A stretch of DNA of 63,326 nt, taken from a candidate division WOR-3 bacterium. GTDB lineage: Bacteria; Hydrothermota; Tepidihabitantia; Tepidihabitantales; Tepidihabitantaceae. The notes beneath the pieces are model-generated. The model did no database searches. It saw only the letters and a list, made by a program, of their open reading frames with translations, and was not told the origin of the DNA. Positions 40,280-57,347 of the stretch are shown piece after piece. Location of the stretch: contig JAPLUO010000214.1 in NCBI GenBank assembly GCA_026397595.1, forward strand, positions 1 through 63,326, given 5' to 3'. The stretch's first letter is position 1, and every line of letters starts with the position of its first letter. The position numbers and the translations under genes were made by a program.

Positions 40280-40675
40280 CTACAGCTTGATGAGTCGGGC
40301 GACTTCCCGCAGCAGTACTTCGGGCTCGACCGGTTTCTCAAGAAACCCGTCGACCGGCAGGTAGTCGCCGTCGGCGTTGGGGTCGAGGTGGAAGCTGCTG
40401 GCACCGGACTCCTTGTTGACCGCAGTGATCATCAGTATCGGGATGCCGCTGAATCGCTCGTCACCCTTGATTTTCTGGCCGAGCCAGACTCCGTCGCCGA
40501 TTGTCTTCATCATCACATCGAGCAGGATGATGTCGGGCTTTTCTTTCTGCAACTGGGCCAGCGCCTCGTTGCCGTTTGCGGCCGTGCGTGTTTCGTAGCC
40601 GCCTGATTCAAGGATGATCTTCGTGGTCTCGACAAACTCCGGGTCGTCGTCAACCATGAGTACCCGTTTCGCCAC
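40280..40675 (-). CDS. single-domain response regulator (CheY-like receiver)
   Basis: VLMVDDDPEF..., phospho-acceptor DIILLDVMM, ...PILMITA.... Confidence 0.9.
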   Translation of the reverse strand: MAKRVLMVDDDPEFVETTKIILESGGYETRTAANGNEALAQLQKEKPDIILLDVMMKTIGDGVWLGQKIKGDERFSGIPILMITAVNKESGASSFHLDPNADGDYLPVDGFLEKPVEPEVLLREVARLIKL

Positions 40676-41702: not shown

Positions 41703-43166
41703 CTAGCCGGAGTTGCGCAACTCGCGGATGAGCGAGCCGTCCGGGCCGCGGAGACTGACGACCAGCGGCGGCCGGCCCAGCACGTGCGTCGCGCAGGCGA
41801 AGCACGGGTCATACGCCCGGAAGAACATCTCGACCATGTTCAGCAGCCCGTCGTCCGCCTTGCCGCCGTGGATGAGCTCTTTTGCCGCGTTGCGGATTGA
41901 CTGGCAGATTGCGCCCGCGTTGTTGGTGGTTGCGACAATCAGATTGACCTTCTTGATGAGCCGGTCCTCGGTCAGCCAGTAGTGGTGGTAGAGCGTGCCC
42001 CGCGCCGCCTCGACCACGCCGATTCCCTGCTCCTGCATCCGGTAGTCCATGTTCCGGATGTCGGTGCCGGTGATGTCCGGGTCCCGGGCAAGTTCGAGCG
42101 CGTGCTCGGCCGCGTACAGCAGTTCAATCAATCGAGCCCAGTGGAACGCCAGGGTCGAGTTGACCGGCTTGGTGCCGAAAGTATCGAACATCGTCTTGTA
42201 GTGCACGTTCGCCTTCGGGGTCGCCATGCCGTCAGCGGCATTGAGCCGGCCCAGCGGCCCGACCCGGTAGATGCCCGAGTCCATGCCGTCGGTCAGCCCC
42301 TTGAACCCGACCGCCTTGAGATATGCAATCTTCACGTAGGTCCACTCGTACACGTGCTCGCGGATGTGTTCGAGATAGTCCTTGCCTTCGAACTTCAGGA
42401 ACTCCTTGCCGGCCGGGTCGGTCACCCGCACATTGCCGTCGTAGAAGTTGACGTGGTTGTTTGAGTCCACCATGCCCATGTTGTAGAGGGCGAGGCCGAG
42501 ATTCGGGTTCAAGACGAGTGCCATGTAGTCTTTGTTGGCGAGCACCAAGTCGGCGAAGAGCTTGAGCGTGAACTCCGCGAACCCGACGCACGACTCGGCC
42601 ATCGTTTCGATTTCCTTCCGCTCGGATTCGTTGATGGGCTTGGTCTGGCCGCCAGGGATACCTGAGACCGGATGGGTCGGCTTGCCTCCGAGTATCTCGG
42701 TTATCTTCTGGCCAAAGGCCCGGTGTTTGATGACCTCTTTGGCGACGTCGAGCCCGACCTTCTCGATGACCCCGAGGATGTTGCGCTTGGCCTTGGGCGC
42801 GGTCGGCCCGACCACGAAGTCGGGCGCGGCCAGGAAGTAGAAGTGCAGGATGTGGTCGTAGATGAAGTAACCGGAATAGAGCAGGTCACGGAGCTTGAGC
42901 GCGGTTGGCGTGGGCACCACCCCGAACGCCATGTCCAGCGCCTTGGTCGAGGCATAGTGGTGCGCGACCGGGCAGACCCCGCAGATTCGGCTCGTAAGCT
43001 GGGGCATGTCCTCGGCCTTGCGGCCGACGCAGAACTGCTCGAACCCGCGCAGCTCGGGCACCTGGAAGTACGCGTCGTCAACGTCGCCCTTGTCGTTCAG
43101 GAATATCTCGATCTTGCCGTGGCCTTCAAGCCGGGTAATCGGGTCGATCGTTATCCGGGAACTCAC
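41703..43166 (-). CDS. mvhA: [NiFe] hydrogenase large subunit, group 3c (MvhA/VhuA-like)
   Basis: RLEGHG, RICGVCPVAHH and C-terminal DPCFACATH motifs. Start set at the GTG after GAGGAGG, overlapping the mvhG stop (GTGA). Confidence 0.9.
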   Translation of the reverse strand: MSSRITIDPITRLEGHGKIEIFLNDKGDVDDAYFQVPELRGFEQFCVGRKAEDMPQLTSRICGVCPVAHHYASTKALDMAFGVVPTPTALKLRDLLYSGYFIYDHILHFYFLAAPDFVVGPTAPKAKRNILGVIEKVGLDVAKEVIKHRAFGQKITEILGGKPTHPVSGIPGGQTKPINESERKEIETMAESCVGFAEFTLKLFADLVLANKDYMALVLNPNLGLALYNMGMVDSNNHVNFYDGNVRVTDPAGKEFLKFEGKDYLEHIREHVYEWTYVKIAYLKAVGFKGLTDGMDSGIYRVGPLGRLNAADGMATPKANVHYKTMFDTFGTKPVNSTLAFHWARLIELLYAAEHALELARDPDITGTDIRNMDYRMQEQGIGVVEAARGTLYHHYWLTEDRLIKKVNLIVATTNNAGAICQSIRNAAKELIHGGKADDGLLNMVEMFFRAYDPCFACATHVLGRPPLVVSLRGPDGSLIRELRNSG

Positions 43167-44140
43167 GGCTGCCTCCTCAGGCTGAGCGTAGCCTTGGCCA
43201 GGCTGTACATGTACAGTGTGCCGGCCGGGTCGGCCAGCTTGTTCACGAGCCCGGCGGTATCCTGTTCTGACAGGTCTTTCTCGTCGTCCACCCTCAGGAT
43301 GCCGCTCAGGGCCGAGATCATCTTCGCGCCCTGGTCTGAGACCTCGGGGCTCGGGCCCATGCACCCGGTGCAGGGAGAGTTGCCGTTGATGCACCGGGTC
43401 TGGCACCCGGCTCTCGTAGCCGGGCCCATGCAGACAATGCCCTGCTCAAGGAAACACTTTTCCCGGTCGGCCTGGACTTCCCAGGTGCGCTTGAGGTCGG
43501 GCATTTTCTTGGCCACGTGTTTATTCCGCTCGCACTCGTCGCACAGGGTCTTGGCCGGAGCCAGCACCGTTCCCTTGGGCGGGAGCTTGCCCGAGAATAT
43601 CGCGGTGACGGCATTGAGAATCAGCGGCACCGGCGGCGGGCACCCGGGCAGGTAGTAGTCAACGTCCACGACCTGGTCCAGGGCAAACACCCGGTCGTAG
43701 AACTCAGGCAGGTGCAGCTCGCCCTGCTTCACTTGTAGCCTCGTCTGCGGTCTGGTCCGGTTCGGGTTCTCAGTAGACGCGGTCGACTGGTAGGCGGTCT
43801 CGATGATGTCGGACTTCCGGCAGAGGTTGGCGAGGCCCGGAATCGAGCCCTGATGCGCACAGGCGCCGAACGCGACCAGCGCCTTCGACTTCCGTCGCAT
43901 CAGGTGCGCCATCTCCTCCTGCTCCGAATTCCGCACCGAGCCGTTGAAGAAGCAGACGTCCATGAAGCCGTCCGCCATGGCCCGGACGTCGTCGTACTTG
44001 AAGTCCATCGCTACCGGCCAGAGTACGATGTCGGCGTGTGCCACCACGTCGAGAACCGCCTCGTTGATGTCAAGGACCGCAATCTCGCAGCCGCCGCAGG
44101 ATGCTGCCCAGTAAAACCCGAACTTGAGCTTATCCGCCAT
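43163..44140 (-). CDS. mvhG: [NiFe] hydrogenase small subunit (MvhG-like)
   Basis: ...YWAASCGGCEIAVLD..., ...FGACAHQG..., plus distal FeS cysteine clusters. Confidence 0.9.
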   Translation of the reverse strand: MADKLKFGFYWAASCGGCEIAVLDINEAVLDVVAHADIVLWPVAMDFKYDDVRAMADGFMDVCFFNGSVRNSEQEEMAHLMRRKSKALVAFGACAHQGSIPGLANLCRKSDIIETAYQSTASTENPNRTRPQTRLQVKQGELHLPEFYDRVFALDQVVDVDYYLPGCPPPVPLILNAVTAIFSGKLPPKGTVLAPAKTLCDECERNKHVAKKMPDLKRTWEVQADREKCFLEQGIVCMGPATRAGCQTRCINGNSPCTGCMGPSPEVSDQGAKMISALSGILRVDDEKDLSEQDTAGLVNKLADPAGTLYMYSLAKATLSLRRQP

Positions 44141-44690
44141 CTCTCTGCTCCTGTCCGACCAGTCCGACGTGTCCGACCGGTCCGACTCCGGACAGCGGTC
44201 CCAGACTCCTTATCTGGTCGGTGTACTCCCGCACGACCTGGGCGAACTTCGCACCCTCAGCCGCGGAAATCCACTCGAGCCGGAGCCGTTCCTCTTCGAC
44301 GCCCAGTTGCTGCATCAGCCGCTTGAGCATCATGGTCCGCTTCAGGGTCTTGTAGTTGCCGCTCTGATAGTGGCAGTCGCCCGGATGGCAGCCACCGATG
44401 AAGACTCCGTCCGCGCCGTCGCGGAAAGCCTGGAGCACGAGCGCGGGGTCCACGGAACCCGAGCACATTACCCTTATCGCCCGCATGTTGGTCGGGTACT
44501 GCAGCCGGGAGGTGCCGGCCAGGTCTGCGCCGGCATACGTGCACCAGTTGCACAGGAATCCGACAATCCTCGGTTCAAACACCTGTCCGCTGTCCGTTGT
44601 CCGCACCTCTGACTGCTGACTTCCGACCTCCGACCTCTGACTTTTGACTTTTGACTTTTGACCCTTGACTTCTAACTTCTCCGTTCCCAC
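44130..44690 (-). CDS. mvhD: methyl-viologen-reducing hydrogenase delta subunit (MvhD/FlpD family)
   Basis: IVGFLCNWCTYAGADLAG...MCSGSV...GGCHPGDCHY. The ~35 N-terminal and ~20 C-terminal residues are low-complexity word DNA, so the true start is uncertain. Confidence 0.85.
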   Translation of the reverse strand: MGTEKLEVKGQKSKVKSQRSEVGSQQSEVRTTDSGQVFEPRIVGFLCNWCTYAGADLAGTSRLQYPTNMRAIRVMCSGSVDPALVLQAFRDGADGVFIGGCHPGDCHYQSGNYKTLKRTMMLKRLMQQLGVEEERLRLEWISAAEGAKFAQVVREYTDQIRSLGPLSGVGPVGHVGLVGQEQRDGG

Positions 44691-44693
44691 GAG

Positions 44694-47600
44694 TTACTCC
44701 TTCAGGGCCGGCTCCGGTGCCGCCCGCAAAGCCGCGCGCAGCATTGCCCGGGTTTGCCGGCTGTTGAACCCGAGGTGCGACATCGCGCCGGACGGGCAGG
44801 CTGCGGTGCAGTTGCCGCAGCCTTTGCACAGCGCCTCGTTGACGCGGGAAACGGTCTTGCCGTCTTTTTCAACCAGCCCGGGAGCACCGTACGCGCAGAC
44901 TGAGACGCAAATCCCGCACCCGGCGCAGACAAGGTCGTTCACGACTGCGGTAGTCGCTCCGGCCTCGTACGTGTCCTTGGCGAGAATCGTGGCTGCGCGC
45001 GCCGCAGCAGCCTTGGCCTGGGCCACGGTCTCCTGGATGTTCTTGGGCGAATGAGCCAGGCCGGCCAGAAACACGCCCTCGGTCGCGAAATCCACCGGCC
45101 GCAGTTTGACGTGCGCCTCGAGAAAGAACCCGTCCTCGTTCAGCGGGATTTTCAGCATCCTTGAGACCACGGCCGCGTCGTCGTGCGGGACAATCCCCGA
45201 GGCCAGCACCACGAGGTCCGGGTTGATGCTCAGGGCCGCGCCCAGGATGGAATCCCGGGCCTTGACCACGAGCTTGTCGCCGTCGCGCTCGACCGTCGGC
45301 TTCTCCTCCGGCTCGTAGCGCACGAACACCACGCCTAAGTCTCTGGCCCGCTGGTAGTACTCCTCAAGGAACCCGTACGTCCGGACGTCCCGGCAGAGCA
45401 CGTACACGTTCACCTTCGGGTTGAGCTCTTTCAGCTTCAGCGCGTTCTTCACCGCGTCCTGGCAGCAGACGCGCGAGCAGTACGGCCGTTCCTCGTCGCG
45501 CGAGCCCACGCACTGAATCATCACCACGTTCTTCAGCCGGGCAAGCTGGGTCGCGTCCGCGTCGGCAATCCGCTGCTCCAGTTCGAGCTGGGTGATTACC
45601 CGGTCGTCCTCGCCGTACAGGTACTCCTTGGGCCGCGCCTCCCTGGCTCCGGTCGCCACGACCACGACTCCGTGCTCTACTTCGGGTTCGTAGTCCCGGC
45701 CGGCGAGCTTGATCTTAGTCTTGTAGTTGCCGATGTACCCTTGGATGGACTCCGCGCTCGCGCCCTTATAGACCTTGATACGCGGGTGGGTCTCAACCCG
45801 GGCCATCAGCGAGCCGAGATAGGCCTTGACGTCCGCGCCTTCGAGCGAGTAGCGCAGGTTCCGGGCGTTGCCGCCGAGCTCTTTCTCCCGCTCGATGAGC
45901 GTCACCTCGAACCCCTGCTCGGCAATAGACAGGGCCGAAACCATGCCGGCCAGCCCGCCGCCCAGCACCAGCGCCTTCTGGGTTACCGGCAGGACCACGC
46001 TCTTCAGCGGTTCCAGCAGCCCGGCCTTGGCCACCGCCATCTCGACCAGGCTCTTGGCCTTGGCCGTTGCCCGCTCCGGCTCCCGCATGTGAGTCCAACT
46101 GCACTGGTCCCGGATGTTCGCCATCTCGAACAGGTGCGGGTTCAAGCCCGCCTCGCGCAGCGTCTCCTGGAACAGCGGCTCGTGGGTTCTGGGCGTGCAG
46201 GACGCCACGACCACGCGGTTCAGCTTGTGCTCCTCGATGGCGGTCTTGATCTTATGCTGCGTGTCCTGAGAACAGGTGAACAGGTTCTCGTCCACGTGGA
46301 CCACGTCCGGCAGCGTGCGGGCGAATTCGGCCACGCCCGGCACGTCAACGGTGCTCGCGATGTTGATGCCGCACCGGCACACGAACACGCCGATTCTAGG
46401 GCGCTCGCCGGCCACGCTGCGCTCCGGCGGATAGGTTTTCTGAACGACCTCGGTCCCGCGGGCGTCGTGCATAATCTCGGCCGCGCCGCTTGCCGCCGCC
46501 GATGCCTGGGTCACTGTCTCGGGAATGTCCTTGGGCGCGGCCGCGGCTCCGCACACGAAGATGCCGGGCCTCGTGGTCTCGGTCGGGCAGAACCGCGCGG
46601 TCTGAAAGAACCGGTGCCGGTTCAGCCTGATGCCCAGCTTGTCCGCGAGTTCCGGCGCATCTGCGGGCGGGCTGAACCCGACCGACAGCACGACCATGTC
46701 GAACTCCTCGGTCTTCATCCCGCCGTTGCCCTCATTGGCGTAGTGCACGACGAGGTCGCCCGACTCCGGCCTCTCGTCCACCTTTCCCACCCGGGCCCGG
46801 ACAAACCTGACCCCCTGCTCCTTCTGCGCGCGCTCATAGTACCGGTCAAAATCCTTGCCGTGCGCCCGGATGTCCATGTAGAAGATGGTCGGCTCGATGT
46901 CGCGCGCGTGCTCCTTGGCGATGACCGCCTCTTTGATGCCGTACATGCAGCAGACCGAAGAGCAGTAGCTGTTGCCGGCTTCGTCGTCTCGGGACCCGAC
47001 GCACTGGACCCAGGCAATCCGCTTCGGGGCTTTCCCGTCGCCCGGGCGCTGGAGATGCCCGCCGAACGGCCCGGACGCGGCCAGAATGCGCTCGAACTGA
47101 ATGCTGGTGACTACGTTGGGGTACATGCCGAACCCGAACTCGTATTTCAGCCGCGGATTGTACTTCTCCGCCCCGTTCGCGAGGATGATTGCGCCAACGC
47201 CGATTTCCCGGTGCTGCGCCGGCATCTCGTGCACGACGGCATGCGCCTCGCAGACCCGCTCGCACTCCAGGCACTCTGAGCAGACTCCGCACTCAAGGCA
47301 GCGGCTCGCCTCAGCCAGCGCTTGCTCTTCGCTCAAGCCGAGCTCGCACTCCGCGAAATTCCTGACCCGCTTGCCGGCCGCCAGCACCGGCATCTGCTGC
47401 CGGGGCTTCTTCTCAACGAACTCCGGCAGTTCCTTCTCCGGCAATTCCTCGTTCGTTCGTCGTTCCTCGTCCTTTGTTCTTCGTCCTTCGCGCAGGTCCT
47501 CGCCCGCCAGATAGCGGCTGATGGAAACCGCGGCCTCGTTCCCGTGATGCACCGCCTCGACAATCGAAGCCGGCCCGCTCACAATGTCCCCGCCCGCAAA

Positions 47601-49358
47601 GACACCCGGAACGCTCGTCTCCAGCGTCACCGGGTCCGCCTCAATCCGACCCCGGGTCTGCTTGAGCGTCTCAAGACCTTCGAGCTGCGACCGCTGGCCG
47701 ATGGCGACGATGACCGTGTCGGCCGGGATGGTCTCACTTGCGCACTCCTTGTCGTACACCGGTGCGAAGCTGCCGTCGTCCGAGTACACCGAGGTACAGC
47801 GCATTGTCTCCACGCCGGTAACCCGGCCGTTCTTCGTGACGATTCTCTTCGGCCCGAGGCAGCAGCGGACCACAACGCCTTCCTCCTCGGCCGCCTCAAT
47901 CTCCCAGGCGTGCGCCGGCATCCGGTCCCGCGAATCGAGGTTGCGCGTCTCCAGGCACACCATGCTCACCTCTTCCGCGCCCAGACGGGCTGCGGTCCGC
48001 GCGCAGTCTACTGCCACGTTCCCGCCGCCGATAACCACGACCTTCCGGCCCAATCCCTCAATCTTGGCCCCGCGCTTCACCTGTCGCAGGAAATCCAGAC
48101 CCAGCAGCACGCGTGTCTTTGTTCCTCGTTCCTCGTTCTTCGTTCTTCCGTCTTCTCCTGGCAGCTCGGCCCCGGCCTGGCATCCGACCGCGACATACAC
48201 GGCGTCGTGGCGCTTCTTGAGTTCGTCAATCGTCACGTCACGGCCGACTCTCGTTCCCCGCTTCAACTCAATCCCGGCCTCAAGAATCCGTTCAATGTCC
48301 TGCATCGCGCACGCTTTGGGGATGCGGTACTCAGGCAGGCAGGACACGAGCATCCCGCCCGGCTCGCCGGCCTCGTCATACACCGTCACCGCATAGCCCT
48401 GGTCGCGCAGCCGCAACGCGCAAGTGAGGCCCGAGGGCCCCGCGCCCACGACGCCGACCGTTTTCTTGCTGGTTATCTCCGCCTTGGCGCTCTTCGCGGC
48501 TTCCCCTCCGCTCCTCTCCGCCCCTTCGTCATTTCCCCTTTCCCCTTCTCCCTTGGCACTCTTGGCGTCCTTGGCGGTTTCCCCTCCGGCGTTCTCCGTT
48601 CCTCGTTCTTCGTACTCCCTGTCCGCGATGAACCGCTTAATCGCCGCAATCGCTATCGGCTCATCGTACTCACCGCGCCGGCAGTTGGCCTCGCACGGAT
48701 GATGGCATACCCGGCCGCATATCGAGACGAACGGATTGTGCTTCCGGACCAGTTCGTACGCTTCGTGGTACTTCTTCTCACGCACCAGCGCCACATAGCC
48801 CTGGGCGTGAACCCCGGCCGGGCACGACACCTGGCACGCGGGCCGCGCCTTCTTGTCAATGGAGAACGCACTCGGGTAGGCCTGCGCGAAGAGGCGGTAT
48901 GCCGCCCGCCGGTCCACAAGCTGCTCGTCGAACTTCGACGGCAGCTTGACCGGGCAGACCTTCTCGCACTCCCCACACCCGGTGCACTTCGCCGGGTCGA
49001 CGAACCGCGGTCGCTTCAGCACCTTGACCCGGAAGTCGCCGGCCTCGCCGGTTACCGCTTCGATTTCCGCGCCCGACAACAGTTCGATGTTAAAGTGCCG
49101 GCCGCACTCCACCAGTTTCGGGGACATGATGCACATCGCGCAGTCATTGGTCGGAAACGTCTTGTCGAGCTGGGCCATGATGCCGCCGATTGCCGGCCCG
49201 CGCTCGAGCAGATAGACCTTGAACCCCGCGTTCGCCAGGTCGAGCGACGACTGGATGCCCGCGATTCCCGCGCCGACGACCAGCACCGCTCCGGGCTTGC
49301 CGCCTCGGCCTGACCTCTCCGTTCCGCCGGCCGTCATTGGAACTTGCTCCTTCGTCAT
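44694..49358 (-). CDS. HdrL-like giant fusion: an HdrA module split by a GltD/NfnB-like NAD(P)H oxidoreductase insert, followed by a second HdrA module
   Basis: The first HdrA module has an FAD fold (VVGAGIAGIQ) and TFPTNDCAMCI. The GltD-like insert has SCPAG...ICGRVCHHPCE.NCRRG and VVGAGPSGL...GGGNVAVDCART...AGGD. The first module continues with QCVGSRD...YCSSVCC. The second module has GVFVCRCG...ASCTPRTHE...QCVGSRD...CSRVCC and terminal ferredoxin motifs. Confidence 0.85.
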   Translation of the reverse strand: MTKEQVPMTAGGTERSGRGGKPGAVLVVGAGIAGIQSSLDLANAGFKVYLLERGPAIGGIMAQLDKTFPTNDCAMCIMSPKLVECGRHFNIELLSGAEIEAVTGEAGDFRVKVLKRPRFVDPAKCTGCGECEKVCPVKLPSKFDEQLVDRRAAYRLFAQAYPSAFSIDKKARPACQVSCPAGVHAQGYVALVREKKYHEAYELVRKHNPFVSICGRVCHHPCEANCRRGEYDEPIAIAAIKRFIADREYEERGTENAGGETAKDAKSAKGEGERGNDEGAERSGGEAAKSAKAEITSKKTVGVVGAGPSGLTCALRLRDQGYAVTVYDEAGEPGGMLVSCLPEYRIPKACAMQDIERILEAGIELKRGTRVGRDVTIDELKKRHDAVYVAVGCQAGAELPGEDGRTKNEERGTKTRVLLGLDFLRQVKRGAKIEGLGRKVVVIGGGNVAVDCARTAARLGAEEVSMVCLETRNLDSRDRMPAHAWEIEAAEEEGVVVRCCLGPKRIVTKNGRVTGVETMRCTSVYSDDGSFAPVYDKECASETIPADTVIVAIGQRSQLEGLETLKQTRGRIEADPVTLETSVPGVFAGGDIVSGPASIVEAVHHGNEAAVSISRYLAGEDLREGRRTKDEERRTNEELPEKELPEFVEKKPRQQMPVLAAGKRVRNFAECELGLSEEQALAEASRCLECGVCSECLECERVCEAHAVVHEMPAQHREIGVGAIILANGAEKYNPRLKYEFGFGMYPNVVTSIQFERILAASGPFGGHLQRPGDGKAPKRIAWVQCVGSRDDEAGNSYCSSVCCMYGIKEAVIAKEHARDIEPTIFYMDIRAHGKDFDRYYERAQKEQGVRFVRARVGKVDERPESGDLVVHYANEGNGGMKTEEFDMVVLSVGFSPPADAPELADKLGIRLNRHRFFQTARFCPTETTRPGIFVCGAAAAPKDIPETVTQASAAASGAAEIMHDARGTEVVQKTYPPERSVAGERPRIGVFVCRCGINIASTVDVPGVAEFARTLPDVVHVDENLFTCSQDTQHKIKTAIEEHKLNRVVVASCTPRTHEPLFQETLREAGLNPHLFEMANIRDQCSWTHMREPERATAKAKSLVEMAVAKAGLLEPLKSVVLPVTQKALVLGGGLAGMVSALSIAEQGFEVTLIEREKELGGNARNLRYSLEGADVKAYLGSLMARVETHPRIKVYKGASAESIQGYIGNYKTKIKLAGRDYEPEVEHGVVVVATGAREARPKEYLYGEDDRVITQLELEQRIADADATQLARLKNVVMIQCVGSRDEERPYCSRVCCQDAVKNALKLKELNPKVNVYVLCRDVRTYGFLEEYYQRARDLGVVFVRYEPEEKPTVERDGDKLVVKARDSILGAALSINPDLVVLASGIVPHDDAAVVSRMLKIPLNEDGFFLEAHVKLRPVDFATEGVFLAGLAHSPKNIQETVAQAKAAAARAATILAKDTYEAGATTAVVNDLVCAGCGICVSVCAYGAPGLVEKDGKTVSRVNEALCKGCGNCTAACPSGAMSHLGFNSRQTRAMLRAALRAAPEPALKE

Positions 49359-49368
49359 TGCCGCGCCC

Positions 49369-50505: not shown

Positions 50506-50512
50506 CGTCGGC

Positions 50513-50983
50513 TCACGCCTTGGCGGCAATCCGCTTGTCCACCATCGCCTTGATCTTCTCGCCCTGCTTCTTTTCCGGGTTCAGCGCGTACTTGATGATG
50601 TTGCAGCGCAGGTCCTGGGTAAACCGGTCCAGGTCGTCAATCATCGCAAGCCGTTCCTTGGGCGCGTGGCCTTCCTTGACCGCCAGCTTGCGCAGCACCT
50701 CCATCACGTCGGCGAACTTGACGTTCTGCGGGCAGCGGGCATAGCAGGTGTAGCAGCGGGCGCACAGCCAGATGGTGTCCGAGGACAACACCTGCTTGCG
50801 CAGGCCGAGCACGGCCATCCGGATGATTTTGCGCGGGTCGTACTCCTCCATCACCTCCGCGACCGGGCAACTGGCGGTGCAGGTCCCGCAGGAGAAGCAG
50901 CGCTTGAAATTCTCGGCTCCCGGCTGGCTCGCAATCTCGTGTTTGAACTGGGAGTCGGATTCACTGAGGTTGATTTCTTCCAT
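50513..50983 (-). CDS. hdrC: HdrC-like 2x[4Fe-4S] protein
   Basis: CFSCGTCTASCP and CARCYTCYARCP motifs in an HdrC-sized protein. Confidence 0.7.
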   Translation of the reverse strand: MEEINLSESDSQFKHEIASQPGAENFKRCFSCGTCTASCPVAEVMEEYDPRKIIRMAVLGLRKQVLSSDTIWLCARCYTCYARCPQNVKFADVMEVLRKLAVKEGHAPKERLAMIDDLDRFTQDLRCNIIKYALNPEKKQGEKIKAMVDKRIAAKA

Positions 50984-50995
50984 TTTGGCTCCTCT

Positions 50996-51826
50996 CTAGA
51001 CCCCTTCCGGCAGGCTGGCCAGCTCGGCATAGGAGAATACCGGGCCGTCGGTGCAGACGTACCTGGGTCCGATGTTGCACCGGCCGCACTTGCCCACGCC
51101 ACACTTCATTCTGCGCTCGAGCGAGGTGTAAATCCGGTCGCCGGGGAACCCGAGGTCCAGCAGCACCGGCATTGTGTACTTGATCATCACCGGCGGGCCG
51201 CAGACTACTGCCCAGCCGTCTTTCGGGCTGGGCCTGACCTTCTCGGTCACGGTCGGCACGAATCCGACCGCCTTGTCCCAGCCTGCGGCCGGCTGGTCAA
51301 TCGTCAGGTGGACCTCGACGTCGCCGCGCTTTCCCCATTCGGCGAGCTCGTCGCGGTACAGGAGCAGTCCGGGCCGGCGCGCGCCGTAGATGACCGTGAT
51401 GTCGCCGTAGTCGCTGCGGTTTGCCAGCAGGTAGGCGGCCAGAGACCGGAGCGTGGTGAAGGCGAACCCGCCGCCGACCAGCACCACGTTCTGGCCCTTG
51501 AACTTCTCGACCGGGTAGTGATTGCCCAGGGGCCCGCGCAGGCCGAGTTCCTCGCCTTCCTTGAGATAGTGCAGCGCGGTCGTGACGGTCCCGACCCGGT
51601 TGACCGTGAACCGGAGGGACTCCCTTTCGGTCGGCGAGGACGCGATGCCGAACGCCGCCTCGCCCTTGCCCAGTATCGAAAGCTGGCAGAACTGGCCCGG
51701 CAGGTACTCGAACGGCTCGGTATCGTCCCCGAACGCAAGGTCGAACGTCCGCAGGGTCCGGTCGTCGGACTCGACCCGGACGTTCTGTACTCTCACCGGA
51801 ATCGGGACGTACGAATTATCCGGCAT
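50996..51826 (-). CDS. FAD/NAD(P)-binding oxidoreductase with a C-terminal 2Fe-2S motif (sulfhydrogenase gamma HydG / FlxA / AsrB-like)
   Basis: ...PGQFCQLS..., ...LVGGGFAFTTL..., ...CGPPVM..., C-terminal CGVGKCGRC. Confidence 0.8.
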   Translation of the reverse strand: MPDNSYVPIPVRVQNVRVESDDRTLRTFDLAFGDDTEPFEYLPGQFCQLSILGKGEAAFGIASSPTERESLRFTVNRVGTVTTALHYLKEGEELGLRGPLGNHYPVEKFKGQNVVLVGGGFAFTTLRSLAAYLLANRSDYGDITVIYGARRPGLLLYRDELAEWGKRGDVEVHLTIDQPAAGWDKAVGFVPTVTEKVRPSPKDGWAVVCGPPVMIKYTMPVLLDLGFPGDRIYTSLERRMKCGVGKCGRCNIGPRYVCTDGPVFSYAELASLPEGV

Positions 51827-52919
51827 GCCTGACGTCCTTCGTTCCCGCCTCTTGGCGTTCTTGGCGGCCTTGGCGGTTCTCCTGCTTTCCGGACTTGCCT
51901 TCGACTTTCACCCGCTCAAGCACCAGCCGCACGTCGAAATCTGCCGGGCACAGCCGGATGCACCGGCCGCAGCCGACGCAGGCCGTCTCTCCGAAATTGT
52001 CTACGAAGTAACTGAACTTGTGCATGACGCGCTGCCGGATTCGCTCTTTGGCACTCGGCCTGGGGTTGTGCCCGGAGGCCTCCTTCGTGAACAGGGCCGA
52101 CTGGCAGGTGTCCCAGATTCGCACCCGCCGTCCCTGCATGGTGCCGGGCGCGGTCTCGTCCTGGACGTCGAAGCAGTGGCAGGTCGGGCACAGATAGGCG
52201 CAGGCTCCGCACGACAGGCAGCCAAGCGCGACCTCGTCCCAGAGTGCGCTGTCCCAGAGCGTTGCCAGTGCGGCCTTGACCCCGGAGAAATCGGCCGCCG
52301 GCGCCAGCGATTCCAGTGCCTTGCCGCGCACCTGTCCGGCCTTGTCCAGGTCGGCCTGACTCGGCCGCTGCACCTGGGATTTGTACGCCGCCTTGAGGAA
52401 TCGCTCGCCCTTGTCCGTGCACGACTCCGCGAGGAACGCATCGCCGATGTCGGTGAGCATGATGTCCGACCCCTGGGAGTCGAACGGGCCCAGGTTCATC
52501 GAGTTGCAGAAGCAGGTCTCAAGCGGCGTGCCGCACCCGAGGCCGATTATCAGGCTGTCGTCATGCCGCCGCTGCCATAGCGAGTCCCGGTACTTGCCCG
52601 TGCCGAACACCTTGTCCAGCAGGAGCAGGCTTCGGGCATCGCAGGGCCGGACCCCGAGAACAGCCGTCGGTTTGTCCCTGCCCGGCGGTGGCTCGCTCGT
52701 GGTTCCGTCATAGGACAAGAGCATTTCGGTCTGAGGGAAAAACGCCGCCTTTACCGGCCCGTCAAGCGCCGCGTCGAGCGCAAGCTCGTCCGCGCTCTTG
52801 ACCTCGCGCAGCACGGTCGCGCCGTCAACGTCAACCGGCCCGAACAACCGGTAGCGCGACGTGAGCGCCGAAACCAGTTGGTCCATGTCCTGCTTGGCGA
52901 TTCTGAGCGACGAGCTCAC
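51816..52919 (-). CDS. FeS protein (sulfhydrogenase beta HydB / FlxB / AsrA-like)
   Basis: ...VRPCDARSL..., CLSCGACAYLCPTCHCF, CVGCGRCIRLCP. The C-terminal ~30 aa are low-complexity word DNA. Confidence 0.75.
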   Translation of the reverse strand: MSSSLRIAKQDMDQLVSALTSRYRLFGPVDVDGATVLREVKSADELALDAALDGPVKAAFFPQTEMLLSYDGTTSEPPPGRDKPTAVLGVRPCDARSLLLLDKVFGTGKYRDSLWQRRHDDSLIIGLGCGTPLETCFCNSMNLGPFDSQGSDIMLTDIGDAFLAESCTDKGERFLKAAYKSQVQRPSQADLDKAGQVRGKALESLAPAADFSGVKAALATLWDSALWDEVALGCLSCGACAYLCPTCHCFDVQDETAPGTMQGRRVRIWDTCQSALFTKEASGHNPRPSAKERIRQRVMHKFSYFVDNFGETACVGCGRCIRLCPADFDVRLVLERVKVEGKSGKQENRQGRQERQEAGTKDVRHAG

Positions 52920-53851
52920 AGTATGAACTCCTGCTTATCTTCTTCGCCGTAGGTGGCCAAGGCCGGTGTCGCTTCCATGCTCAGGCCAGCGGTGTACCCG
53001 AAACGTTCGCGGACTTCCTGCTCAATCCGTTTGTTCAGCAGCCCGAGCCGGACCCCGAGCGGGCAGGCGCGCTCGCACGCGCCGCAGTCAACGCACCGGC
53101 CCGCGGTGTGCAGGGCGCGCACGAGGTGGAACAGGGTGGTGTCCGGCCGCTCCGCGCTCTTGCCGAACCACTGCGGGTTCGTCTGGTCAACAAAGCACTC
53201 TTCGCAGTAGCACATCGGGCAGGCGTTCCGGCAGGCATAGCAGCGGATGCACTTGGCCAGCTCGCGCTCGAACCACGCCCACCGGTCTGCCGGTGCCAGC
53301 TTCTCGAACTCAGCGACCCCGGCGAATTCGTCACCGGTTCTGGCCTCAGCCGGCTCGCCGACGAATACGTCATACACCGGCGGATTCGGATACCGGCACC
53401 GTCGGCACGAGTCTGACAGAACGCCGGACGCTTCACGCTCGACGCTCGACGCCTCCTGCACAGGGCGTCTGGCGTCGGACGGATGGCGTCGTGCGTCAAC
53501 CACTCCGCCACAGCCGACGCCGATAATCACGACCTGGTCGCGCTTAAGCTGGCCCTCGGCAACCTGCTGCACCAAGGCCCGGCCGTCGCAGCCTTTGGCA
53601 ACAACCGCGACTCTGGTGCCCGGCTGCGCGGCCCGGAGCGCCTTGCGCACGAAGGGGACCAGGCTGAGGCCGCAGGTATTGTCGAAAATCAGGCGGTCCA
53701 CGTCTTTCTCGTCCGTGATGACCGCGGGCCGGGTGCGCCGCCCGGACGAACCGCGCTCATATCCGATGACGAGGTCGGCCTTCTTCTCCTTCAGGAGTCT
53801 GCCGGCCGTCTCTTTGAGTTGCTGCCCGGTATCGGGCGCGCCGCGCTTCAC
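52916..53851 (-). CDS. FeS protein associated with MvhD/HdrA (FlxC-like)
   Basis: CIRCYACRNACPMCYC and CVDCGACERACP motifs. Start set at the GTG that overlaps the upstream mvhD-like stop (GTGA). Confidence 0.65.
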   Translation of the reverse strand: MKRGAPDTGQQLKETAGRLLKEKKADLVIGYERGSSGRRTRPAVITDEKDVDRLIFDNTCGLSLVPFVRKALRAAQPGTRVAVVAKGCDGRALVQQVAEGQLKRDQVVIIGVGCGGVVDARRHPSDARRPVQEASSVEREASGVLSDSCRRCRYPNPPVYDVFVGEPAEARTGDEFAGVAEFEKLAPADRWAWFERELAKCIRCYACRNACPMCYCEECFVDQTNPQWFGKSAERPDTTLFHLVRALHTAGRCVDCGACERACPLGVRLGLLNKRIEQEVRERFGYTAGLSMEATPALATYGEEDKQEFIL

Positions 53852-54279
53852 TGCCCGCCCCCTGCGGCCTTGACCAGCCGCTTGGCCGGCCCCAGCTTCT
53901 TCACGTCGTCCGTGACCCGGGCGACGACCTGCGCGAACTTCTCGCCCTCGCCCGCAGAAACCCACGCGAACTGAACCCGGCCCGGCTCGACGCCGATGAA
54001 CTCCAGCGCCGTCTTCAGTGTCGCGAATTTCCGGCGTGCGATGTAGTTGCCCGAAATGTAATGGCAGTCGCCCGGATGACAGCCCGATACCAGCACGCCG
54101 TCAAAGCCGTTCTCAAGGCTCTTCAGGACGAAGAGCGGGCTCACCCGGCCCGAGCAGGGAACACGCACGACCCGGACGTTGGGCGGGTACTGGATCCTCG
54201 ACACCCCGGCCAGGTCCGCGCCCGCATACGAGCACCAGTTGCAGAGGAAAGCGACAATCTTCGGTTCCCAGTCGTTCAT
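53848..54279 (-). CDS. second MvhD/FlxD-family protein
   Basis: IVAFLCNWCSYAGADLAG...PCSGRV...SGCHPGDCHY. Confidence 0.85.
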   Translation of the reverse strand: MNDWEPKIVAFLCNWCSYAGADLAGVSRIQYPPNVRVVRVPCSGRVSPLFVLKSLENGFDGVLVSGCHPGDCHYISGNYIARRKFATLKTALEFIGVEPGRVQFAWVSAGEGEKFAQVVARVTDDVKKLGPAKRLVKAAGGGQ

Positions 54280-57200
54280 GTTCGAAGCGCGCTCACCGCC
54301 TCATAAATCTGGTCGTCGGTGAACCCCTTCAGATTCACCGCGCCGCACCGGCACGACGCCGCGCACACGCCGCACCCCTTACACAGCGCCTCGTTCACCT
54401 GCGCCACGGTCACGGTCTGCCCATCGCCCCGCTTCATCTCCTTCAGTTCCAAGGCCGCGTACGCGCAGGTCGCCACGCAGACTCCGCAGCCGGTGCACCG
54501 GTCCGGGTCAACCCACGAGACCGTGCCTTCGACCGCGACCTGCTTCTTGCACAGCACGCCCAGAGCCCGGGCTGCGGCTGCACGTGCCTGAATGATGGAT
54601 TCATCAATATCCTTGGGTGCATGGGCCAGACCGGCCATGAACACGCCATCAGTAGCGAAATCCACCGGCCGCAGCTTCATGTGCGCCTCGAGGAAGAATC
54701 CGTCCCGATTCAGCGGGACCTTCAGCATCTTGGCCAGTGCCTGGTTGCCGGCCGGGGGCGTGATGGCGCTGGCGAGCACCAGCAGGTCGGCGTCAATCAC
54801 AATCTCCTTGCCGAGCAGCCGGTCCCCGAACCGGACTCTGACCCGGCTGGTCACGTCACCCGGCTTCACCGGCTCGACCTTCGGCTTGCTGTCGAGCTCG
54901 TACCGTTCGAATATCACGCCCAGTTCCCGCGCCTCGGTGTAGTACTTCTCGGCCAGGCCGTAGGTCCGCAGGTCCCGGTACAGCACGTAGACCTCGGTAT
55001 TCGGGTGCTTGCGCTTTATCAGCGCCGCGTTCTTCACGGCCTCGGCGCAGCAGACCCGGCTGCAGTAGTCACGGTCCGGCTCGCGTGAGCCCACGCACTG
55101 AATCATCACCACGGTCTTGAGCCGCAGCAGCGCGTCCATCCGCCGCTCGAGTTCGAACTGAGTAACCACGCGCTGGTTCTTGCCGTACAGGTACTCGGCC
55201 GGCACCGCTTCCTTTGCCCCGGTCGCGACAATCACCACGCCATGCTCGACCTTTATCGGGGACGTGCCGTTTGGGGTTTGGGATTGGGGATTTGGGATTT
55301 CCACGGAAGTGGTGTACTTTCCGACGTACCCCTCGATGCTCTTCACGTCGGCGCCGGTATAGACCGTGATGAGCTTGTGACCCTTCACCCGCTCGACCAC
55401 CGAACGCAGTAACTCCTGCGGGGCCGCGCCGCTCAGCGTGTGGCGGATTCCCTTCAGGTTTCCGCCCAGCTCGTTCTCCCGCTCCAGTAGCACCGCTTCA
55501 TACCCGGCGTCGGCAATCGCCAGGGCCGCGGTCATCCCGGAAAGCCCGCCACCGATGACGAGCGCCCGCGGGTTGATGTCAATCAGCAGCTCCTCGAGCG
55601 GCCCCAGGTTCCGCGCCCGGGCAATTCCCATCTGTACCGTGTCCTTCACCTTTTCGGTCGCCGCTGCCGGCTCGTTCATGTGCGCCCAGGAACACTGGTC
55701 CCGGATGTTGGCCATCTCGAACAGGTACTGATTCAGCCCGGCCTCGCGCAGGGTTTCGCGGAACAGCGGCTCGTGCGTGCGCGGGGTACAGGCCGCAACC
55801 AGCACCCGGTTCAGGTCAAGCTCCCTGACCTTCTCCTTGATGGTCTCCAGCGAGTCCTGCGAGCACGCGTACATCACGTCCTGCGCGTGCTCGACGTTGG
55901 GCAGGGTCTTCGCGAACTCGACGACCGCGTTCACGTCAACCACGCCCGCGATGTTGGTCCCGCAGTGGCAGACGAACGCGCCGATTCTCGGCCGCTCGCC
56001 GACCACCACCTTTTCCTTCGGGAATTCCTTGGTCGAGGCCCGCTCGCGCCGCTCCAGGCCCAGGTACGGGGCGCAGCCTGCCGCCGCGGCCGAGGCCGAC
56101 ATCACCGACTCAGGGATGTCTTTGGGCCCGCCGGCTGCCCCGCACACGAACACGCCGGCCCGGCTGGTCGCGAGCGGCTCGAATGGCAGGGTCTTACAGA
56201 ACCCGTACTCATCAAGCTTGATGTCAACCTGGTCGGTGAGCCGGGCCAGCCGGCGCCGTGCCTCCAGCCCGACCGAGAGCACGACCAGGTCAAAGTCCTC
56301 GCTCTCGCGCTGGCCGTACTCCGGCATGAAATGCAACTTCAGGCTGCCGCCGTCAACCGGTTCGACCCGGCCGACCCGGGCTCGGGCGAACTTCACGCCG
56401 AAGTGCGACTCGGCCCGCTCGCAATACCGGTCGAAATCCTTGCCGAACGCGCGCAGATCCATGTAGAAAATCGTCGGCTCAATGCCTTTCCCGTGTTCCC
56501 TGGCAATGACCGCTTCCTTGACCGCGTACATGCAGCAGACCGAACTGCAATAGGCGTTCTTTTCAAGGTCTCGGGAACCCACACACTGGATGAACGCTAT
56601 CTTCTTCGGCTCCCTGCCGTCCGACGGCCGCACCACGTGCCCGCGCTGGGGCCCGCTGGCCGACAGCATCCGCTCGAACTCGATGGCCGACACCACGTTC
56701 GGGTATTCGCGGTAACCGTACTGGCCATAGCCAACCGGATTGTACGGGTCAATCCCGCTCGCGATGACCACTGCCCCGCAGTTCAGGCTGACAATCCGGT
56801 CCGCATCCTCGAAGTTGATGGCGTCGGCCGCGCAGGCCTTCTCGCACAGCCGGCACGCGCCCTTGGTCAGATAGAGACAATGGGCCGCGTCAATCAGATA
56901 GTTGGAAGGAATGCTCTGGGCGAAGTGCCGGTATATCGCCTTGCGCGACCGCAGTTCCACGTCGAACTCGTCCGGCACCTTGACCGGGCACTTCTCCGCG
57001 CACAACCCGCAGGCAACGCACTTCTCCGCGTCAACGTATCGGGCACGTTCCCGGATTGTGCACTGGAAGTTCCCGGGCGTGCCGGACACCGAAACTAGTG
57101 ACGAGTGCGTGTGCAGCGTGATGTTCGGATGACGGGCGCACTCGCTCATCTTCGGAGAGAGGATGCAGATTGAACAATCGTTGGTGGGGAATGTCTTGTC

Positions 57201-57347
57201 CAGTTGCGCCATCCTGCCACCGATTGACGGCGTCTCCTCAAGCAGATGAACGTCCGCGCCCAACTCGGCCAAGTCCAGCGCCGCTTGGATTCCTGCAATG
57301 CCGGCGCCGACCACAAGAGCTGACCTGCTTGATGAAGGTCGCTGCAT
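54276..57347 (-). CDS. hdrA: tandem-HdrA heterodisulfide reductase subunit A-like flavoprotein (two HdrA modules)
   Basis: Module 1: VVGAGIAGIQ, TFPTNDCSICI, QCVGSRD...YCSSVCC. Module 2: GAFVCHCG, ACTPRTHE, QCVGSRE...CSRVCC, terminal CTGCGVCVATC / CKGCGVCAASC. Confidence 0.9.
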   Translation of the reverse strand: MQRPSSSRSALVVGAGIAGIQAALDLAELGADVHLLEETPSIGGRMAQLDKTFPTNDCSICILSPKMSECARHPNITLHTHSSLVSVSGTPGNFQCTIRERARYVDAEKCVACGLCAEKCPVKVPDEFDVELRSRKAIYRHFAQSIPSNYLIDAAHCLYLTKGACRLCEKACAADAINFEDADRIVSLNCGAVVIASGIDPYNPVGYGQYGYREYPNVVSAIEFERMLSASGPQRGHVVRPSDGREPKKIAFIQCVGSRDLEKNAYCSSVCCMYAVKEAVIAREHGKGIEPTIFYMDLRAFGKDFDRYCERAESHFGVKFARARVGRVEPVDGGSLKLHFMPEYGQRESEDFDLVVLSVGLEARRRLARLTDQVDIKLDEYGFCKTLPFEPLATSRAGVFVCGAAGGPKDIPESVMSASAAAAGCAPYLGLERRERASTKEFPKEKVVVGERPRIGAFVCHCGTNIAGVVDVNAVVEFAKTLPNVEHAQDVMYACSQDSLETIKEKVRELDLNRVLVAACTPRTHEPLFRETLREAGLNQYLFEMANIRDQCSWAHMNEPAAATEKVKDTVQMGIARARNLGPLEELLIDINPRALVIGGGLSGMTAALAIADAGYEAVLLERENELGGNLKGIRHTLSGAAPQELLRSVVERVKGHKLITVYTGADVKSIEGYVGKYTTSVEIPNPQSQTPNGTSPIKVEHGVVIVATGAKEAVPAEYLYGKNQRVVTQFELERRMDALLRLKTVVMIQCVGSREPDRDYCSRVCCAEAVKNAALIKRKHPNTEVYVLYRDLRTYGLAEKYYTEARELGVIFERYELDSKPKVEPVKPGDVTSRVRVRFGDRLLGKEIVIDADLLVLASAITPPAGNQALAKMLKVPLNRDGFFLEAHMKLRPVDFATDGVFMAGLAHAPKDIDESIIQARAAAARALGVLCKKQVAVEGTVSWVDPDRCTGCGVCVATCAYAALELKEMKRGDGQTVTVAQVNEALCKGCGVCAASCRCGAVNLKGFTDDQIYEAVSALRT

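Follow-up and report, generated by a model that had tools for sequence, protein, structure and literature searches.

The gene cluster described here lies at positions 41703-57347 of a 63,326-nucleotide (nt) stretch of a contig from a candidate division WOR-3 bacterium (JAPLUO010000214.1, assembly GCA_026397595.1); the whole stretch analysed is referred to as the window. Its genes were read by listing of open reading frames (ORFs) and by Pfam. Eleven co-directional ORFs on the minus strand fill the region from end to end and encode proteins of the Hdr, Flx and Mvh types, among them two fused HdrA proteins, an HdrC homologue, an FrhB-like protein and a [NiFe]-hydrogenase. In transcription order, with lengths in amino acids (aa), the genes are:

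54276-57347, minus strand: G1, 1023 aa, double HdrA by Pfam (HdrA2x)
53848-54279, minus strand: G2, 143 aa, MvhD/FlxD [2Fe-2S] connector (MvhD1; PF02662, FlpD, E 3e-55)
52916-53851, minus strand: G3, 311 aa, FlxC-like protein, 2x[4Fe-4S] (Pfam Fer4_8/Fer4_2)
51816-52919, minus strand: G4, 367 aa, FlxB-like protein (PF17179, Fer4_22, E 2e-34)
50996-51826, minus strand: G5, 276 aa, FlxA-like protein (Pfam FAD_binding_6, NAD_binding_1, DHODB_Fe-S_bind)
50513-50983, minus strand: G6, 156 aa, HdrC homologue, 2x[4Fe-4S]
49369-50505 or 49369-50529, minus strand: G7, 378 aa (ATG at 50505) or 386 aa (TTG at 50529), FrhB-like protein with an N-terminal 2x[4Fe-4S] domain
44694-49358, minus strand: G8 (HdrL), 1554 aa, HdrA with a Fer4_20 and Pyr_redox_2 insert
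44130-44690, minus strand: G9, 186-aa ORF, second MvhD connector (MvhD2; PF02662, E 3e-55, residues 42-164)
43163-44140, minus strand: G10, 325 aa, MvhG/VhuG-type small subunit (PF01058, Oxidored_q6)
41703-43166, minus strand: G11, 487 aa, group-3 [NiFe]-hydrogenase large subunit (PF00374)

ORF listing and Pfam agree on this order and these domains, as they had been given in a sequence-only reading of the same DNA. The two MvhD connectors and the three nucleotide or flavin modules (FlxA-like, NfnB-like insert and FrhB-like) of that reading were likewise recovered. NCBIfam was discarded as a source of names, since the 10 proteins tested all stayed below the curated cut-offs of its models. When sensible start codons are chosen, the junctions from G1 to G11 measure -4, -4, -4, -11, +12, +7, +10, +3, -11 and -4 nt, which bears out the operon-like packing noted before, with one junction in doubt. 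The +3 nt distance between HdrL and MvhD2 rests on a GTG that opens a heptamer tandem array (GTCAAAA and variants, 44600-44679), and the first 36 codons of the G9 ORF consist of this array. The MvhD2 orthologues in two close relatives of the locus (L001 and L005, see below) are shorter, at 142 aa and 169 aa, respectively, and the true start of MvhD2 may be the in-frame GTG at 44582 (150 aa), in which case the gap would be about 110 nt.

Short tandem arrays occur throughout the window, approximately 30 of period 7 and several of period 8 (60081-60117, 61490-61525); their sites include 44600-44679, 58950-59018, 63201-63322, 665-696, 8986-9017, 31520-31619, 47452-47490 and 48116-48155. They lie mostly at gene boundaries, and some flank the NfnB-like insert inside HdrL and give rise to loops rich in K/E/R/T. 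The arrays lengthen apparent N-termini (MvhD2, SelA), their length varies among close relatives, and the heptamer arrays resemble the STRR heptamer repeats of cyanobacteria.

An identically ordered set of these eleven genes, with the histidine kinase and response regulator of the window behind it as well, was found in WOR-3 bacterium UBA2258 (L005, DDXO01000076.1, a GTDB representative; approximately 88% nt identity, collinear from 60461 to 40163, including selA and mcsB upstream) and in a JGI metagenome contig (L001, Ga0315282_10006525; approximately 80% nt identity to the window). A chimeric assembly of two loci, which would have undone the sequence-only reading, was rejected because these three independent assemblies are collinear. 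The closest named relatives of the FrhB-like protein also come from candidate division WOR-3. Taken jointly with the function proposed further on, the assignment of all eleven genes to one operon of a WOR-3 bacterium has about an even chance of being correct. An Rfam scan of the window returned a tRNA-Ser only, with no riboswitch or SECIS-type match, and a promoter and terminator consensus scan of the window gave counts equal to those in shuffled sequences.

The co-occurrence survey of the gene order that had been proposed as a check was carried out on 80 GTDB loci around relatives of the central gene and four further loci, and these 84 loci were annotated with the eleven proteins of the window. 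Two further loci and the window itself were added later, giving 87 sources. The order HdrA2x-MvhD-FlxC-FlxB-FlxA-HdrC-FrhB-HdrL was found in 32 of the 84 loci and the sub-order FlxC-FlxB-FlxA-HdrC-FrhB in 38; many of the remaining bacterial loci were cut by contig ends. The eight-gene order was present in at least nine bacterial phylum-level groups, among them WOR-3, Cloacimonadota, Neomarinimicrobiota, KSB1, Krumholzibacteriota, Fermentibacteria/Aegiribacteria/Sabulitectum, Eisenbacteria, Delongbacteria and a metagenome-assembled genome (MAG) of Desulfobacterales. Two FlxC-like genes and a third MvhD were added upstream of it in many loci outside WOR-3. These findings show that the eight genes are an old conserved core of fixed order, with the hydrogenase genes placed downstream, placed upstream or, in most loci, missing. 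The cluster had been read as a merger of parts of FlxABCD-HdrABC and MvhADG-HdrABC; it is no one-off, since the eight genes form a recurring core to which the hydrogenase is optional.

No CCG-domain protein (HdrB) was found by Pfam in 39 of the larger ORFs of the window, chosen as likely genes, and a regular expression for the CCG motif gave no match in any of the six frames of the 63-kb window, in agreement with the earlier statement that no HdrB is encoded. As a positive control, the same expression detected HdrB in Bathyarchaeia loci. A second detector, jackhmmer seeded with the HdrB of locus L086, gave the same picture. By both detectors, bacterial loci with the core order had no HdrB within the cluster or next to it, with the exception of L086, in which a separate HdrA-MvhD/HdrC/HdrB set lies immediately downstream of HdrL; the adjacent hdrB that would have overturned the sequence-only reading was therefore encountered nowhere else among them. 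A bacterial MAG with a different arrangement (L006) also has CCG proteins. The upstream FlxC-like genes of other phyla were considered as a place where HdrB might be hidden and were rejected, as Pfam found a weak FrhB_C match and Fer4_8 in them and no CCG domain, which makes them FrhB_C-like and HdrC-like proteins.

In Bathyarchaeia, HdrB lies exactly between HdrC and FrhB. In the bacterial core, HdrC abuts FrhB with gaps of -37 to +59 nt. Because HdrC abuts FrhB and HdrB was not found, the bacterial core equals the archaeal gene set minus HdrB, and the bacterial form of the cluster is marked by the loss of HdrB. The full Bathyarchaeia order is HdrC-HdrB-FrhB-HdrA pieces-MvhD-fused HdrA-MvhD-FlxCBA (L056-L058, L064, L065, L067, L069, L074, L076, L078, L079 and L081), and the FrhB-like proteins of these loci are approximately 50% identical to that of WOR-3, which suggests transfer between the two domains. 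For an HdrBC unit that reduces the heterodisulfide of coenzyme M (CoM) and coenzyme B (CoB), CoM-S-S-CoB, the window supplies HdrC, and HdrB was not found in it. The cluster would be an ordinary heterodisulfide or DsrC reductase with extra inputs if a canonical HdrB or a DsrC-reducing HdrBC were encoded elsewhere in the genome. The set beside HdrL in L086 and the in-cluster HdrB of the Bathyarchaeia relatives lend this some support; we nevertheless consider it very unlikely, given that a detector validated on archaea found no CCG protein in the window or, except in L086, in or beside the bacterial core-order clusters.

To place the HdrA domains, G1 and G8 were mapped onto the HdrA sequence of the M. 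thermolithotrophicus structure (5ODC_A). G1 matched this chain (5odc_A, E 4e-203) in three stretches. Module 1 (residues 7-426) corresponds to HdrA 143-562, comprising the thioredoxin-reductase-like flavin adenine dinucleotide (FAD) domain and the inserted ferredoxin domain, with the equivalents of Cys194 and Cys197; residues 451-681 and 698-1017 correspond to HdrA 2-233 and 317-645, respectively. A table of the cysteines showed the same pattern in G1 and G8, in that module 1 carries C194/C197 and lacks the N-terminal domain and module 2 is the converse. Both modules retain the four cluster cysteines of the thioredoxin-reductase domain and the GxGxxG motif. Each fused protein keeps the ligands of one N-terminal cluster, one inserted and one C-terminal ferredoxin domain, and two thioredoxin-reductase-domain clusters. 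Every HdrA domain and cysteine ligand needed for an HdrA of the MvhADG-HdrABC type occurs once per fused pseudo-dimer, the dimer-like folding of which is predicted only. The four HdrA modules reported earlier are thus present, and judged from the mapped residues they are two self-contained, asymmetric, fused pseudo-dimers. As their domain losses are complementary, there would be at most two complete bifurcation routes and not four. The pairs HdrL-MvhD2 (44130-49358) and HdrA2x-MvhD1 (53848-57347) are paralogous, with stretches of 64-80% nt identity at a constant offset of approximately 9.59 kb (repeat families D1-D9 and D15). The pattern matches the complementary fused heterodimeric HdrA described for HdrA3/4 of anaerobic methanotrophic archaea (ANME) and for Moorella; the design has also been described for ANME-1 HdrA9-11, which carry an NfnB insert (PMC9012536), and for HdrL (PMC2702500).

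G8 is collinear with G1 at 53-56% identity, interrupted by a 512-residue insert between residues 168 and 681. This insert (residues ~169-680) sits in the inserted ferredoxin domain of module 1 and consists of Fer4_20 (172-251), with its cysteines, and Pyr_redox_2 (301-606, E 9e-59), with intact FAD/NADPH Rossmann motifs (GAGPSG at 305 and GGGNVA at 444). The PDB matches of G8 were HdrA, NfnB (5jca_L, E 8e-62) and a StnA-like protein (8oh5_C). By these motifs and matches the insert is an NfnB/GltD-like NADPH-FAD module. The features that define HdrL were found here, with a GltD/NfnB-like module at residues 172-606 within HdrA and mvhD as the next gene. The form of HdrL with the NfnB-like insert was seen in 16 loci, including the window, and NuoE/F/G-like genes took the place of the insert in 38 loci; no locus had both. 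In L042 and L085, on which Pfam was run, HdrL is split in three: the N-terminal part of HdrA with NuoE, a NuoF-like protein, and a NuoG N-terminal part with the rest of HdrA. A split caused by an in-frame selenocysteine (Sec) codon was rejected, because real NuoE/NuoF/NuoG-like genes replace the NfnB insert. Since either NfnB-like or NuoE/F/G-like sequences occupy the site and never both, the insert site appears to be a pyridine-nucleotide port, and the replacement argues strongly for a pyridine-nucleotide entry or exit grafted on the low-potential (inserted ferredoxin) branch of HdrA.

The FlxABCD complement, FlxA (G5), FlxB (G4), FlxC (G3) and FlxD/MvhD (G2), was recovered by Pfam. G3 consists of an FdhB-like N-terminal part and an HdrC-type 2x[4Fe-4S] C-terminal part (CxxCxxCxxxC motifs at 201 and 253), and its best PDB match is FdhB of the Fdh-Hdr(-Fmd) complex (7bkb_E, E 1e-36). 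In the Fdh-Hdr complex 7bkb, FdhB docks MvhD and passes electrons to it. G4 is a homologue of the sulfhydrogenase beta subunit and of AsrA (sulfhydrogenase I beta, 9nez_B, E 1e-41; NCBIfam HydB/ShyB/AsrA all below cut-off). G5 is an NAD(P)H:FAD [2Fe-2S] subunit homologous to sulfhydrogenase gamma, AsrB and NfnA (9nez_C, E 5e-51; NfnA 4ylf_A, E 5e-19). The NfnB-like domain of HdrL and the NfnA-family G5 are both encoded and are not adjacent; by homology G5 pairs with G4, as in sulfhydrogenase. G6 matched HdrC in two structures (5odc_C, E 6e-24; 9sfi_E, E 6e-24) and TIGR03290 (E 6e-29, below cut-off), and on these matches it is a genuine HdrC homologue.

G7 contains FrhB_N and FrhB_C (PF04432, E 2e-37; PF04422, E 2e-18), the fold of an F420-reducing FrhB-type module. 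Its best PDB matches are the F420-reducing subunits of Fwd (8rja_E, 3e-49) and of carbon monoxide dehydrogenase (8riu_B, 3e-41) of Ca. Ethanoperedens, which share its layout, with the ferredoxin domain ahead of the FrhB domain. Electron exchange of this subunit with F420 or another deazaflavin, as in the F420-linked Hdr of Methanosarcina, ANME and Ca. Ethanoperedens, would be in line with these homologues and their layout and with the approximately 50% identical orthologues in the Bathyarchaeia clusters. Two further facts make it improbable, with only a slight chance of being right: the FrhB-family protein HCAR uses ferredoxin instead (5dqr_A, a weak match to G7), and F420, at -340 mV, cannot be the high-potential acceptor. 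In addition, we know of no F420 biosynthesis in WOR-3, Cloacimonadota, Fermentibacteria and similar groups. In another WOR-3 lineage (MAGs L002, L003 and L004; FrhB 63% identical), which has no Flx genes, the FrhB-like gene follows HdrA, DUF749, MpsC, NuoE-like and NuoF-like genes and a 1087-aa Fer2/HdrA fusion, a third context of FrhB-like/HdrA pairing.

The hydrogenase module has the MvhADG complement, with MvhD, MvhG and an MvhA that carries the four NiFe cysteine ligands. The large subunit G11 contains RLEGH, CGVC (62-65) and DPCFACATH (453), hence all NiFe ligands including those cysteines, and G10 has 14 cysteines and no Tat signal. The best structural matches of G11 were NiFe-HydL of Acetomicrobium mobile (7t2r_D, E 7e-118), MvhA (5odc_F, E 4e-108) and HoxH (5xf9_D, E 4e-96). 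Among NCBIfam models VhuA ranked first for G11 (E 4e-119), and VhuG matched G10 (E 2e-60), both below cut-off; the precomputed Pfam domains of the L001 orthologue of G11 are HoxH and NiFeSe_Hases. These matches serve as proxy evidence for the class of the hydrogenase, group 3c being that of MvhADG, and put it nearest to NiFe-HydL of A. mobile, a bifurcating enzyme, and to MvhA. A group 3b sulfhydrogenase was rejected, as the subunits match Vhu/Mvh far better than HydA/HydD and as the beta/gamma homologues (G4/G5) lie four genes away from the hydrogenase genes. [NiFe]-hydrogenase genes were present in only 8 of the 87 loci, mostly WOR-3, at one end of the core or the other. The downstream arrangement, MvhD-G-A, is that of WOR-3 loci L001, L005 and L014 and of the window, and L010, L032 and L047 have (D)-G-A upstream; the remaining two hydrogenase-bearing loci belong to one Verrucomicrobiota and one Bathyarchaeia. 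This distribution is as expected for an optional, lineage-specific accessory, a plug-in input module.

Genes of the sulfur-carrier type were found in or beside the cluster in 25 of the 87 loci. In Cloacimonadota and Delongbacteria, the point between HdrC and FrhB is precisely where TusA, a YeeE/YedE-like transporter and two to three rhodaneses, some of them with signal peptides, have been inserted (insertions at this point in L021, L022, L025, L028-L031, L035, L038, L046, L050, L054 and L086). DsrE-like genes lie between HdrA2x and MvhD in KSB1 L036 (5798-6160) and L086, between FlxB and FlxA in L021, L024 and L025, and between HdrL and MvhD2 in WOR-3 L014 (17367-17720). A YTD-like cluster is found beside Fermentibacteria loci, and carrier genes lie downstream in L049, L052 and L053. 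No TusA, DsrE or rhodanese was found in the window and its two closest relatives. Measured against the features of sHdr systems, the window showed no HdrB, TusA/DsrE or rhodanese, and no search was aimed at LbpA.

The loci with an insertion between HdrC and FrhB encode MvhD1 as a selenoprotein wherever MvhD1 is visible. An in-frame TGA stands at the Cys of VSGCHPGDCHY in the Cloacimonadota and Delongbacteria clusters L022, L035, L038, L046 and L086, and the window G2 has Cys where the Cloacimonadota orthologues have Sec; because the TGA of the relatives aligns to this Cys, MvhD switches between Sec and Cys across lineages. The selA gene (57571-59028) lies directly upstream of the operon, none of the eleven ORFs needs a Sec codon, and no tRNA-Sec was found in the window. 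The NCBIfam scores for a sulfur or selenium role were 100 bits for YedE/FdhT and 90 bits for TsuA, all below cut-off. The role of the carrier genes, sulfur or selenium, is ambiguous, because NCBIfam does not separate the two, because the insertions co-occur with Sec in MvhD1 and because the window has Cys in MvhD1 and selA upstream, yet no carrier genes.

Clustering of Hdr, TST, TusA and a transporter in Cloacimonadota has been described by Williams et al. 2021 (PMC8542988), who proposed sulfur oxidation. The partner of the core might be protein-bound sulfane sulfur or thiosulfate, delivered by TusA, DsrE or rhodanese, and the core either a cytoplasmic sulfur reductase or an Hdr-type sulfur oxidiser as in that proposal. 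The TusA/YeeE/rhodanese, DsrE-like and YTD-like genes in or beside 25 of the 87 loci, the homology of FlxB/FlxA to sulfhydrogenase beta/gamma and AsrA/AsrB, and the published clustering all point this way. We regard it as unlikely, however, as the carrier genes were not found in the window or its two closest relatives, as insertions that co-occur with a Sec MvhD may serve selenoprotein synthesis, and as NCBIfam does not tell sulfur from selenium trafficking. Moreover, sHdr sulfur oxidation is defined by HdrB and LbpA, of which HdrB was not found and LbpA was not searched for specifically, and S0/H2S, at about -270 mV, is ill suited as a high-potential partner when NADH drives bifurcation. A wider form of the idea, in which the core represents a widespread enzyme class that uses the FrhB-like protein as its exit instead of HdrB and couples NAD(P)H, ferredoxin and, in WOR-3, also H2 to an acceptor other than a disulfide (sulfane sulfur on TusA/DsrE being the most plausible one), is equally doubtful.

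The reading that we prefer is that the operon encodes a soluble, HdrB-less, multi-flavin iron-sulfur (FeS) oxidoreductase of the Hdr/Flx/Mvh type, built around G1 and HdrL, which would bifurcate or confurcate electrons among H2, NAD(P)H and ferredoxin. Such an assembly had been suggested before, and it remains the best reading, one to which we give even weight for and against. That the proteins form a complex, which paths and direction the electrons take and what the FrhB-like flavin reacts with are proposed here from homology and synteny, and the wiring is modelled on the solved Mvh-Hdr and Fdh-Hdr complexes. NAD(P)H would enter at FlxA (FAD, [2Fe-2S]), and its electrons would pass through FlxB, the FdhB-like FlxC and MvhD1 to the C-terminal ferredoxin domain of G1. 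H2 would be made or consumed at MvhA, which would exchange electrons through MvhG and MvhD2 with the C-terminal ferredoxin domain of HdrL. The HdrA flavin of each pseudo-dimer would split or merge electron pairs. The low-potential branch is predicted to run from the cluster of the N-terminal domain, to which the other module would contribute its Cys197 equivalent, through the single inserted ferredoxin domain to ferredoxin, and in HdrL it would also reach the NfnB-like NADP(H) flavin. The other branch would lead from the thioredoxin-reductase-domain cluster to HdrC and the FrhB-like flavoprotein, which would replace HdrB. Candidate partners of the FrhB-like flavin are NAD(P), a deazaflavin, ferredoxin and sulfane sulfur.

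In its simplest balanced form for this organism, the net chemistry would run reversibly between H2 on one side and NAD(P)+/NAD(P)H plus ferredoxin on the other. It would dispose of electrons during fermentation or take up H2, like HydABC and NiFe-HydABCSL, and the eight-gene core would add Nfn-like balancing of NADH, NADPH and ferredoxin. Neither function would require HdrB. Several points weigh against this proposal. No protein of the cluster has a known high-potential acceptor site, and for this reason the thermodynamics of bifurcation are incomplete. The closest solved FrhB relatives use F420, which to our knowledge has not been reported for WOR-3 or Cloacimonadota. The carrier genes in the clusters of relatives (25 of 87 loci) suggest that H2, NAD(P)H and ferredoxin are not the only substrates. 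The absence of HdrB was seen in the 63-kb window, and an hdrB elsewhere in the genome is possible. The HdrL/MvhD2 junction is possibly about 110 nt with a repeat array, so that co-transcription of the hydrogenase genes is not certain. Finally, the eleven proteins might form two or three separate enzymes and not one complex.

In its most definite form, this last alternative holds that there are two or more enzymes, an NAD(P)H-dependent FlxABC-MvhD1-HdrA2x and an NADP-coupled bifurcating [NiFe]-hydrogenase made of HdrC-FrhB-HdrL-MvhD2-MvhGA. Each fused HdrA does have an input module of its own and a separate MvhD gene behind it, the hydrogenase module is gained and lost independently of the core, and Bathyarchaeia arrange the same families in another order, as HdrC-HdrB-FrhB-HdrA... 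and ...HdrA2x-MvhD-FlxCBA blocks. However, there is a single HdrC for two HdrA pseudo-dimers, and the fact that 32 loci of at least nine phylum-level groups keep the eight core genes in a single order, with junctions that overlap or nearly abut, favours joint function. We consider separate enzymes somewhat unlikely and retain the single HdrB-less oxidoreductase as the working model.

For HdrA, flavin-based bifurcation is understood only in systems with a disulfide-reducing HdrBC. The core retains all HdrA cofactor sites and HdrC, has no HdrB, and has an FrhB-like protein where its archaeal relatives have HdrB and then FrhB. Every building block is known, and the modularity of HdrA is well documented. 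The fixed HdrB-less eight-gene set and its wide spread among phyla without cultivated members are new, and so are the exchange at the NAD(P)H port, the optional nature of the hydrogenase and the recurrent sulfur or selenium carrier insertions. No paper dissecting the core or analysing these points was found in the literature searched, in which HdrL, fused HdrA, the NfnB insert and the Hdr-TusA-TST clustering of Cloacimonadota are described. Metagenome papers (e.g. PMC12590816 and PMC8542988) label such genes "MvhADG-HdrABC" or "Hdr", and because the genes are filed in this way, metabolic models built on these labels (heterodisulfide reduction, sHdr-type sulfur oxidation) are probably wrong in detail. 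The groups that bear the core, at least nine at phylum level, dominate anoxic sediments, digesters and sulfidic waters. The swap between NfnB-like and NuoEF-like ports, the optional hydrogenase and the embedded sulfur or selenium carriers offer experimental handles on function. Should sulfane sulfur be the acceptor, fermenters would gain a cytoplasmic, energy-conserving, sulfur-reducing electron sink.

Directly downstream of the operon, Pfam identified a pair of regulatory genes:

40650-41648, minus strand: histidine kinase without a sensor domain
40280-40675, minus strand: single-domain response regulator

This pair may regulate the operon. In other WOR-3-like loci (L014, 9989-12025; L010, L011, L019 and L047) the FrhB-like protein is fused to a HisKA/HATPase_c part (678-704 aa), and the window kinase aligned weakly with the kinase part of these fusions (25% identity, E 4e-14). 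The fusions hint that the FrhB-like flavoprotein also serves as a redox sensor. Elsewhere in the window, 36513-38525 and 38745-39932 encode a secreted PKD and PQQ-like beta-propeller protein with internal tandem repeats of 120 and 360 nt and an adjoining full-length bacterial serpin (Pfam Serpin, E 9e-107). A P-type heavy-metal ATPase of 1049 aa, with three N-terminal YHS domains and an HMA domain, is encoded at 15207-18356.

Among known systems, the FlxABCD-HdrABC of Desulfovibrio vulgaris (Ramos et al. 2015, as cited in PMC7382037 and PMC5947623) shares with the present cluster the FlxA-like NAD(P)H flavoprotein, the FeS proteins FlxB and FlxC, FlxD (MvhD), and HdrA and HdrC in the same cluster. 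Compared to that description, no HdrB is found here, HdrA is a fused pseudo-dimer, the order is reversed (hdrA-flxDCBA-hdrC), and the FrhB-like protein and HdrL are added. With MvhADG-HdrABC of methanogens (PDB 5ODC, 8RVU) the cluster shares the mvhD-G-A order, the NiFe ligands, an HdrC homologue, all FeS ligands of HdrA, and an MvhD beside an HdrA with a C-terminal ferredoxin domain. In contrast, it has no HdrB and hence no heterodisulfide site, its HdrA is fused and asymmetric with an NfnB-like NADPH module, and the bacterium is not expected to make CoM or CoB.

The HdrL of Desulfobacterium autotrophicum and Syntrophobacter fumaroxidans (PMC2702500, PMC5947623) and ANME-1 HdrA9-11 (PMC9012536) are likewise large HdrA proteins with a GltD/NfnB-like module in the ferredoxin domain, followed by MvhD. 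The HdrL described here is without selenocysteine, belongs to the fixed eight-gene Flx/FrhB-like core and is linked to a [NiFe]-hydrogenase; that of S. fumaroxidans adjoins HdrABC, unlike this one. The fused HdrA of ANME (HdrA3/4) and of the Moorella thermoacetica MetFV-HdrABC-MvhD complex (PMC9012536) has the same two-module chain with complementary N-terminal domain and Cys197. Here the order is reversed, with the Cys197 module that lacks the N-terminal domain placed first, and the partners are different.

The beta and gamma (NADPH) subunits of Pyrococcus furiosus sulfhydrogenase I (group 3b, 9NEZ) are clearly homologous to G4 and G5, whereas in the present cluster G4 and G5 are not adjacent to the hydrogenase genes and the hydrogenase is Vhu/Mvh-like. 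The NiFe-HydABCSL of A. mobile (7T2R), whose large subunit is the best PDB match of G11 (E 7e-118), and the FeFe HydABC share the proposed chemistry of H2, NAD(P)+ and ferredoxin. Their scaffold is of the NuoEF type (Bfu) and that of the present cluster is of the HdrA/MvhD type, with NuoEF-like genes replacing the NfnB insert in 38 related loci.

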